Virus record (IMG/VR): IMGVR_UViG_2778261447_000018
Coordinates: 1 to 4,026 of that record
Origin: a virus
Lineage: Duplodnaviria; Heunggongvirae; Uroviricota; Caudoviricetes
DNA length: 4,026 nucleotides
Direction: 5' to 3' (one strand)
The notes beneath the pieces were generated by a model. That model was given only the letters and a program-made list of their open reading frames with translations, was not told where the DNA came from and ran no database searches. Position 1 is the stretch's first letter. Every line of letters begins with the position of its first letter. Of this stretch, positions 1,874 through 1,922 are shown one piece after another. The position numbers and the translations under genes were made by a program.

Positions 1874-1889
1874 CTGGATGTTCATCCAG
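1874..1889. promoter_or_regulatory. perfect inverted repeat CTGGATG-TT-CATCCAG overlapping the predicted capsid-operon start site; candidate operator
   Basis: Read directly: 7-bp arms with a 2-bp spacer at 1874-1889, immediately downstream of the -10 on the minus strand. This is the position typical of a dimeric regulator's operator. A 2-nt loop makes an RNA hairpin role less likely. Confidence 0.35.
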
Positions 1890-1894
1890 CTCTG

Positions 1895-1922
1895 ATTATA
1901 ATCATGATTGCATTTTGTGCAA
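1895..1922 (-). promoter_or_regulatory. sigma70-like promoter for the 68-aa/capsid/decoration operon
   Basis: On the minus strand: -35 TTGCAC (1922-1917), 16-nt spacer, -10 TATAAT (1900-1895). The predicted start near 1888 gives a leader of about 50 nt before the ATG at 1838. The -10 sits in the palindrome gATTATAATc, so it also reads TATAAT on the plus strand. Confidence 0.4.

Follow-up and report, generated by a model that had tools for sequence, protein, structure and literature searches.

A predicted LexA operator overlapping the start site of the capsid-homolog operon in an Escherichia coli phage-inducible chromosomal island

What could hold the capsid genes of a phage satellite silent when they stand directly behind a promoter with a consensus -10 hexamer, and what is the role of the perfect palindrome that lies where their transcription should begin? 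These questions are raised by a window of 4,026 nucleotides (the whole stretch of DNA analyzed here, from the IMG/VR record IMGVR_UViG_2778261447_000018). An earlier note on this DNA had described a sigma-70 type promoter for the capsid operon and had viewed the palindrome as the operator of a repressor that keeps the head genes silent until a factor encoded by a helper phage or by the element relieves it. When the minus strand is read, the -35 hexamer, the 16-nt spacer, the -10 hexamer and the palindrome are all found exactly at the positions, and with exactly the sequences, that were given there. As judged from its sequence, the palindrome is most likely an E. coli-type LexA operator (SOS box) bound by the LexA of the host.

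The window is 92% identical to EcCICFT073 (NC_004431 1383285-1387658), the model Gram-negative phage-inducible chromosomal island (PICI), and 96.7% identical to an island in strain LH50-c. The criteria for a PICI are the presence of int, alpA, a primase and an iteron origin, a unidirectional arrangement of the genes and a length of about 10-15 kb; to these are added a late zone of gpE and gpD homologs and integration beside conserved chromosomal genes. Both relatives contain int, an alpA-type HTH gene, the primase, SSB and PerC genes and homologs of the capsid gene c1499 and the decoration gene c1500; the window's own content runs from the 3' end of the primase gene through the decoration gene only. 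Judged by the loci of these relatives and by the iterons that it carries, the window is part of an EcCICFT073-type PICI. The minus strand carries all of its real genes. First comes the 3' part of a P4-type primase gene (4026-3316); it is directly followed, as has been described for PICIs, by a field of many GGTAGA(C/T)AG iterons in both orientations (3070-3305), which belongs to the replication origin. Beyond it are an 85-aa gene, the SSB gene (2772-2362) and a PerC-family gene (about 2351-2079). The longest open reading frame of the latter (2079-2471; 130 aa, with a GTG start) overlaps the SSB gene by ~110 nt, and it is probably an artefact of ORF calling because the RefSeq relatives annotate a protein of 82-90 aa.

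The operon itself, on the same minus strand, begins with the gene of a 68-aa protein of unknown function (phrog_3255; 1632..1838), continues with a homolog of the lambda gpE-like major capsid protein of the c1499 type (577..1632) and one of the lambda gpD-like head decoration protein of the c1500 type (230..565), and ends at a terminator-like hairpin, GCCGGAgaaaTCCGGC, with a T7 run (132..158). Intact relatives have in addition a 137-aa gene, annotated as "head-tail connector", between the decoration gene and this closing terminator. Compared with CFT073 and LH50-c, the window is missing 349 bp at about 212-220 (equivalent to 9222-9570 of the locus L001); the deletion has a 9-bp overlap at its junction, is not a multiple of three and has eliminated most of the connector-like gene. 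The 68-aa gene is always located directly behind the capsid-operon promoter and is conserved together with it in every lineage. An AlphaFold model of its product (pLDDT 77) has an N-terminal beta-hairpin and two helices, for which there was no Foldseek match with E below 5 and no PDB sequence match; the idea that this protein is a ribbon-helix-helix autoregulator is unsupported, its sole match being a nonsignificant one to BrnA (E = 0.15). A relative of the capsid gene was looked for in scans that took a single genome for each species, and none turned up.

Between the PerC-family gene and the capsid-operon promoter, two intrinsic-terminator-like hairpins, each followed by a T run, are arranged in tandem on the minus strand (2072-2049, with its stem at 2072-2055, and 2037-2001, with its stem at 2037-2004). 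Because these insulate the operon from upstream transcription, it needs a promoter of its own. The first of them, AGCCGGAgcaaTCCGGCT, is nearly the same as the hairpin that closes the operon, which is therefore bracketed by similar terminators. The promoter is composed of a -35 hexamer TTGCAC (1917..1922, minus strand), the 16-nt spacer AAAATGCAATCATGAT and the consensus -10 hexamer TATAAT (1895..1900, minus strand; 6/6), and both the presence of the two hexamers and their spacing, which is fixed in all lineages, agree with a sigma-70 promoter (spacer of 16-18 nt). The TTGC of the -35 is invariant in the relatives and its last two bases are variable. The tandem terminators and the conservation of the -10 and of TTGC in all relatives thus bear out the claim that the capsid operon has its own promoter. 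The description of this promoter as close to ideal is accurate for the -10, but not for the -35, which matches TTGACA at only 3/6 positions (TTG), or for the 16-nt spacer; these same two features explain why a sigma-70 scan with a threshold of 4/6 per hexamer did not list the site. A sigma-54 reading of TTGCAC...TGCAA was rejected by inspection, since the GG/GC spacing is wrong.

Five nucleotides, CAGAG, separate the -10 from the 16-bp palindrome CTGGATGAACATCCAG (1889-1874, read on the minus strand). Sigma-70 promoter geometry predicts that transcription starts 4-9 nt after the -10 (1886..1891, minus strand), a region that the palindrome overlaps. The leader that follows it, TTATGATTTTTT, includes a TATGAT and a T6 run (1862..1872), and a ribosome-binding site that is conserved in the relatives (AAAGAGGA, 1849..1856, with GAGG at 1853-1850) precedes the ATG of the 68-aa gene at 1838. 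Taken singly, neither of the two most conspicuous elements is unusual: the window contains three perfect TATAAT hexamers on its two strands (1.65 expected) and three perfect inverted repeats whose arms measure 7 bp or more (1.56 expected). Both numbers are within chance, and the argument must therefore come from the match of the palindrome and from its evolution.

SOS boxes of E. coli are built on a CTG-N10-CAG core, and the specificity of the E. coli LexA is well established. The palindrome has precisely this core (1889-1874), inside the 20-mer AGCTGGATGAACATCCAGTT (1872..1891), and its CTG and CAG are invariant in the relatives. The E. coli specificity is the appropriate one, the window being 92-97% identical to E. 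coli chromosomal islands. To score the site by its heterology index (HI), a matrix was recovered by regression on the published HI of 140 E. coli K-12 sites (PMC12527982 Table S1); the fit was exact, and the matrix is palindromic and returns values of 4.31 for recA, 9.19 for ruvA and 12.09 for polB. The box has an HI of 7.87 in the window, 6.81 in CFT073 and 7.61 in O157:H7. These values are better than those of several proven operators, namely ruvAB (9.19), uvrD (8.80), the second lexA box (8.32) and polB (12.09), and only 20 entries of the K-12 list score better. The LexA-binding (PSOSP) cluster extends as far as an HI of 13.6 (PMC12527982), and the window box is located far inside it. The GAAC at the center of the box is less A+T-rich than the consensus.

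A site this good is expected by chance 4e-4 times per window, 7e-5 times per 240-bp intergenic region and about 0.5 times per 4.6-Mb genome. In two 22-kb loci, each comprising a whole island and its flanks, this box has no companion among CTG-N10-CAG sites with an HI of at most 14; throughout 1.35 Mb of PICI loci, nearly all of the sites with an HI of at most 10 are located at the capsid-operon promoter. As a negative control the promoter pattern was scanned for in one genome per species, which gave 68-69 chance matches; in unrelated genomes, none of 68 such matches was accompanied by the box. The placement would suit an operator as well. The core begins 5 nt after TATAAT and overlaps the predicted start (about -1 to +15), so that LexA bound here would occlude RNA polymerase if transcription starts as predicted; in LexA-dependent Salmonella genes the box likewise overlaps the start site (PMC8072944). 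In agreement with the earlier note, the palindrome behaves like an operator site for a protein, placed across the start that is predicted.

Other PICIs contain a second candidate LexA box, TAACTGTACAAAAAACCAGTA (HI 8.27; variants 9.74 and 10.33). It is found at position 1241 of the loci L195, L221, L222, L162, L169 and L173 and at position 1232 of L174, at the stop codon of the integrase gene and ~31 nt upstream of a TATAAT that precedes the next gene. This site is outside the window and is absent from CFT073.

The evolution of the promoter was followed in islands with a capsid identity of at least 93%, which supplied 56 distinct upstream sequences for comparison. The mean non-majority fraction was 0.003 in the -10 hexamer, 0.013 in the 16-bp core of the box and 0 in its CTG and CAG, with 0.20 in the 5 nt between the -10 and the box, 0.08 further upstream and 0.04 in the first 60 coding bases; no intergenic columns are better conserved among these 56 relatives than those of the -10 and the 16-bp core. 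The few substitutions in the box are of a particular kind. A change of ATCCAG to ATACAG breaks a pair of the stem, with no compensation, and lowers the HI to 5.41, which makes it a better LexA site; a change of GATGAAC to GATAAAC is a shift toward the A+T-rich LexA consensus. More distant lineages could be reached via the homologs of the 68-aa protein. In one of these (L089/L090), whose 68-aa protein is 59% identical, the sequence CTGTATATAAATTCAG is found at the identical offset with HI of 7.69 and 5.36; 7 of the 10 inner bases of the window box have been replaced and the result is the canonical LexA consensus. Another lineage (L088) has CTGGATGCACATACAG, with an HI of 8.08, and a Salmonella locus has CTGGATAAATATCCAG, with an HI of 9.86. 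Altogether, 11 different cores occupy one fixed offset with HI between 5.36 and 9.86.

This pattern permits a choice between LexA and its competitors. The box could instead serve a repressor of its own, one that the PICI or a helper phage encodes, as its perfect 7+7 symmetry at the start site would allow. Derepression by helper-specific signals is common in PICI biology, and in a related E. coli PICI it is the helper phage, not DNA damage as such, that triggers the alpA switch (PMC11773190). However, such a repressor should preserve its own target, and the variation of the box tracks the LexA matrix with no single specific sequence kept, even to the point where a distant lineage has rebuilt most of the interior as a canonical SOS box. 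The islands have no annotated gene for a LexA-like or CI-like repressor. Furthermore, the palindrome was looked for at the other promoters of the island, the alpA and int regions included, and was not found: two whole islands contain no second copy, and what the distant lineage has is a different and more canonical LexA box. Since the LexA matrix is satisfied throughout, and neither a specific sequence nor the pairing of the arms is kept, LexA is favored over both a dedicated repressor, which we consider very unlikely, and a stem in the RNA.

The latter alternative, that the palindrome acts in the transcript, either as a stabilizing 5' stem-loop or as a leader terminator that a helper's antiterminator overcomes in the manner of lambda PR', has some attractions. 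A constitutive promoter followed by an early terminator would explain both the strong -10 and the silence of late genes, and the likeness to the PR'/Q system includes a late structural operon behind a constitutive-looking sigma-70 promoter, a conserved element between the -35 and the -10 and, in this window, an early hairpin with a U run. A terminator scan lists 1891-1872 of the minus strand (8 pairs and a loop of 4, then ATGATTTTTT), a -10-like TATGAT comes after the stem, and the window's leader folds at -15.4 kcal/mol (z = -2.35). Nevertheless, the features of an intrinsic terminator or attenuator, namely a G+C-rich stem, an immediate U tract and compensatory changes, were not found: only 3 of the 8 pairs are G-C, the U run is 4 nt away from the stem and the ATACAG variants leave their broken pair uncompensated. 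The leaders of the L088 and L089 lineages fold no better than shuffled sequences (z = +1.6 and +0.5), that of L089 has no U run, and the terminator-like combination of hairpin and U run is confined to the window among the leaders examined. No Rfam family scored above noise. Because neither stem nor U run is conserved, we rejected the RNA hairpin or terminator reading as very unlikely. A mimic of the PR'/Q type was rejected as well, since lambda PR' does not align in register and none of 50,697 phage records has a similar promoter or leader. A 12-nt identity, CAAAATGCAATC, was noticed post hoc between the promoter spacer (1907-1918) and the lambda 6S RNA region (L246 233-244), that is, the PR' transcript upstream of tR'; it is probably a coincidence.

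The box is absent from two groups of islands, those of Edwardsiella (L085-L087) and the L243-type islands (L243-L244, together with L314, L326-L328, L434 and L439). Both of these box-less lineages have TAAAAT rather than TATAAT as their -10, and all the homologous promoters with TATAAT have the box, the one exception being a sequence with a 1-nt insertion. Such a pairing of the consensus -10 with the box would make sense for a promoter that is strong in itself and is held back by the box. In the L243-type islands a left half-site only is present (ACTGAC...TTATG), which is possibly a decayed LexA box.

Of 5426 complete E. coli genomes, 590 carry this promoter and box together, among them CFT073, Nissle 1917 and O157:H7, and the arrangement extends to other genera. 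That a palindrome should have come to lie beside a chance TATAAT with no regulatory role might be argued from the frequency of either element in 4 kb and from the failure of the sigma-70 scan to call the promoter; against a joint architecture at fixed offset in so many genomes, conservation minima that fall exactly on the -10 and the box, and the low chance expectation of the HI, such a coincidence is hardly credible.

Some published data bear on how the operon is expressed. In O157:H7 the same operon is located beside phoPQ, in the cryptic prophage CP-933C (L245). RNA-seq of strain EDL933 under 11 conditions gave RPKM values of 0-4 for the capsid gene Z1847 and of 69 for the gene just upstream (PMC4048457). 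Z1847 is thus nearly silent despite its consensus -10, which fits a repressed promoter. Together with the position of the operator at the start site, this sustains that part of the earlier proposal in which the head genes are kept silent; the part that has to be revised is relief by a helper- or element-encoded factor, LexA being the likelier ligand. After exposure to trimethoprim-sulfamethoxazole, in a shallow library, there were 0 reads for Z1847 while neighboring island genes were up (PMC4048457). After 2 h of ciprofloxacin, the capsid mRNA of EDL933 (EDL933_1786, whose box has the HI of 7.61) changed -1.8-fold (PMC11125564 S1 table). In this same set lexA was up 6.5-fold, recN 8.3-fold, sulA 4.6-fold and the island primase 5.3-fold; uvrB and ruvAB were not differentially expressed and yebG was up only 2.2-fold (PMC11125564).

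The capsid gene was induced by neither drug, which argues that removing LexA would not by itself turn the operon on. We regard these O157:H7 data as an argument against simple SOS induction, without being decisive, given the weak or absent response of uvrB, ruvAB and yebG in the one set and the shallow library in the other. Ciprofloxacin also alters DNA supercoiling, and the single 2-h point is compatible with a transient induction or with an effect of gyrase inhibition. The lack of SOS induction in EDL933 is in addition a point that a dedicated repressor would account for. Proteomics of EDL933 found the capsid homolog, and likewise the product of the gene directly before it, essentially unchanged between untreated and ciprofloxacin-treated cells; the island primase protein was up 34-fold at 12 h.

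An additional level of control could reside in a second inverted repeat. A perfect ATTGCA-caaaa-TGCAAT (1907..1923), a symmetrical element with no strand, spans the -35 and extends across half of the spacer, and 30 bp upstream of it the alignment reveals a degenerate distal copy, ATTTCA-taatt-TGCAAC (1937..1953). The pattern TTGC-N6-TGCAAT is kept in every lineage, the box-less ones included; for the TGCAAT within the spacer the non-majority fraction is 0.015, and in Edwardsiella both copies of the repeat are perfect. This makes ATTGCA-N5-TGCAAT a candidate site for a second regulator, and the helper or element input that was imagined earlier for the palindrome may apply to this repeat instead. 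The TTGCA half-sites might be given CytR-like or LysR-like readings, for which we make no claim.

It could even be that this repeat is the real switch, operated by a regulator of the element, the helper or the host, with LexA as an accessory brake only; such a view overlaps with the LexA explanation and does not exclude it. Its persistence in Edwardsiella and the L243-type islands, where the box is missing, speaks for this, as does the silence of the O157:H7 capsid gene and its lack of SOS induction. Yet the exact pattern TTGC-N6-TGCAA occurs at no other promoter or regulatory region of the islands, those of alpA and int included, no factor that binds it was found, and the upstream neighbor gene differs between lineages (PerC, a 243-aa protein or a ProQ-like protein). 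The co-conserved 68-aa protein has no match to a DNA-binding fold, and a part of the repeat's conservation may simply reflect the function of the -35. On balance we judge this reading to be rather unlikely.

We return to LexA as the preferred explanation. The element in question would be the promoter-operator of a capsid-homolog operon that comprises the 68-aa gene, the gpE-like and the gpD-like genes and, in intact relatives, the connector-like gene. The terminators would block read-through from the replication module and make the operon dependent on its own sigma-70 promoter, where a LexA dimer on the box would block initiation. DNA damage would activate RecA, LexA would cleave itself and this lock would open, in response to the very signal by which lambdoid helper prophages are induced. 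From the match, its statistics, its position and a conservation that follows the LexA matrix, we infer that host LexA probably binds and represses at this promoter. That LexA cleavage alone would then induce the operon is doubtful. LexA is probably necessary but not sufficient, one of two locks; two are proposed because SOS induction was not seen in O157:H7 and because a conserved repeat covers the -35 and the spacer.

More speculatively, and with rather low confidence, the promoter may be seen as a device with two keys that evolved independently of the staphylococcal islands (SaPIs), with LexA at +1 and another regulator at the -35 repeat, by which the satellite would read DNA damage directly. 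The box would have been gained or lost together with the change in -10 strength (TATAAT versus TAAAAT), and the sensing of DNA damage would precede, or be separate from, the helper-dependent AlpA signal. The signal would time the production of capsid and decoration paralogs that are dispensable for transfer, and the role of these might be to interfere with, or poison, the assembly of the helper's heads. Homologs of the major capsid protein are the most common late gene of Gram-negative PICIs (21 of 29 reference islands) and are not needed for transfer (PMC10111431); deletion of these homologs did not relieve the interference with lambda (PMC6092414).

How does such an operator compare with those of known systems? 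By its sequence it is one more ordinary SOS box, and the novelty lies in where it is found. With the ruvAB box, CGCTGGATATCTATCCAGCA (HI 9.19), it shares identical arms, CTGGAT/ATCCAG, and the same 16-bp CTG-N10-CAG core, and with the recA box, TACTGTATGAGCATACAGTA (HI 4.31), a similar G+C-containing center. Unlike these, the predicted operator belongs to a mobile element, and the genes behind it are those of virion-protein homologs and not of DNA repair. In promoters of the colE1-type colicins, SOS boxes are immediately downstream of the -10, and two overlapping boxes confer very tight binding of LexA. The capsid-operon promoter resembles them in having a strong -10 followed by a probable LexA operator over the start site, on a mobile element and before genes whose expression is costly; it differs by its single box and by the different conserved repeat over its -35.

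The closest parallel is in another satellite family. The LexA motif on the SaPI side is the Gram-positive Cheo-type box. Operon I of the SaPIs of Staphylococcus aureus is given as LexA-controlled by the papers that cite the original study (Ubeda et al. 2007, Mol Microbiol 65:41; cited in PMC6092414, PMC6739421). There, as would be the case here, a satellite's morphogenesis and packaging operon has its own promoter with the host's SOS repressor as its guard, and the remaining parts of the island follow a signal specific to the helper. The two differ in their host, LexA motif and ancestry, as well as in the genes concerned (terS, cpm and ppi there, gpE and gpD homologs here), and control was demonstrated experimentally in the SaPIs, whereas here it is predicted, with one published dataset that has no induction. 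If real, the resemblance is convergent. Literature searches for a PICI with a LexA or SOS box gave no report for Gram-negative PICI capsid genes and no published LexA binding data for this promoter locus; both E. coli PICI papers mention LexA only through the SaPI citation and contain nothing on the c1499-c1500 promoter.

Because the alpA switch is responsive to the helper, the box at the capsid promoter would be the island's only direct SOS input. The mismatch with the O157:H7 transcriptome and the second repeat point to an extra layer of control. If the proposal is true, the LexA operator gives the capsid-homolog genes a defined and testable input, a widespread operon of mobile elements joins the SOS regulon of E. 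coli, and the same regulatory solution would have arisen independently in the staphylococcal and the enterobacterial satellites.
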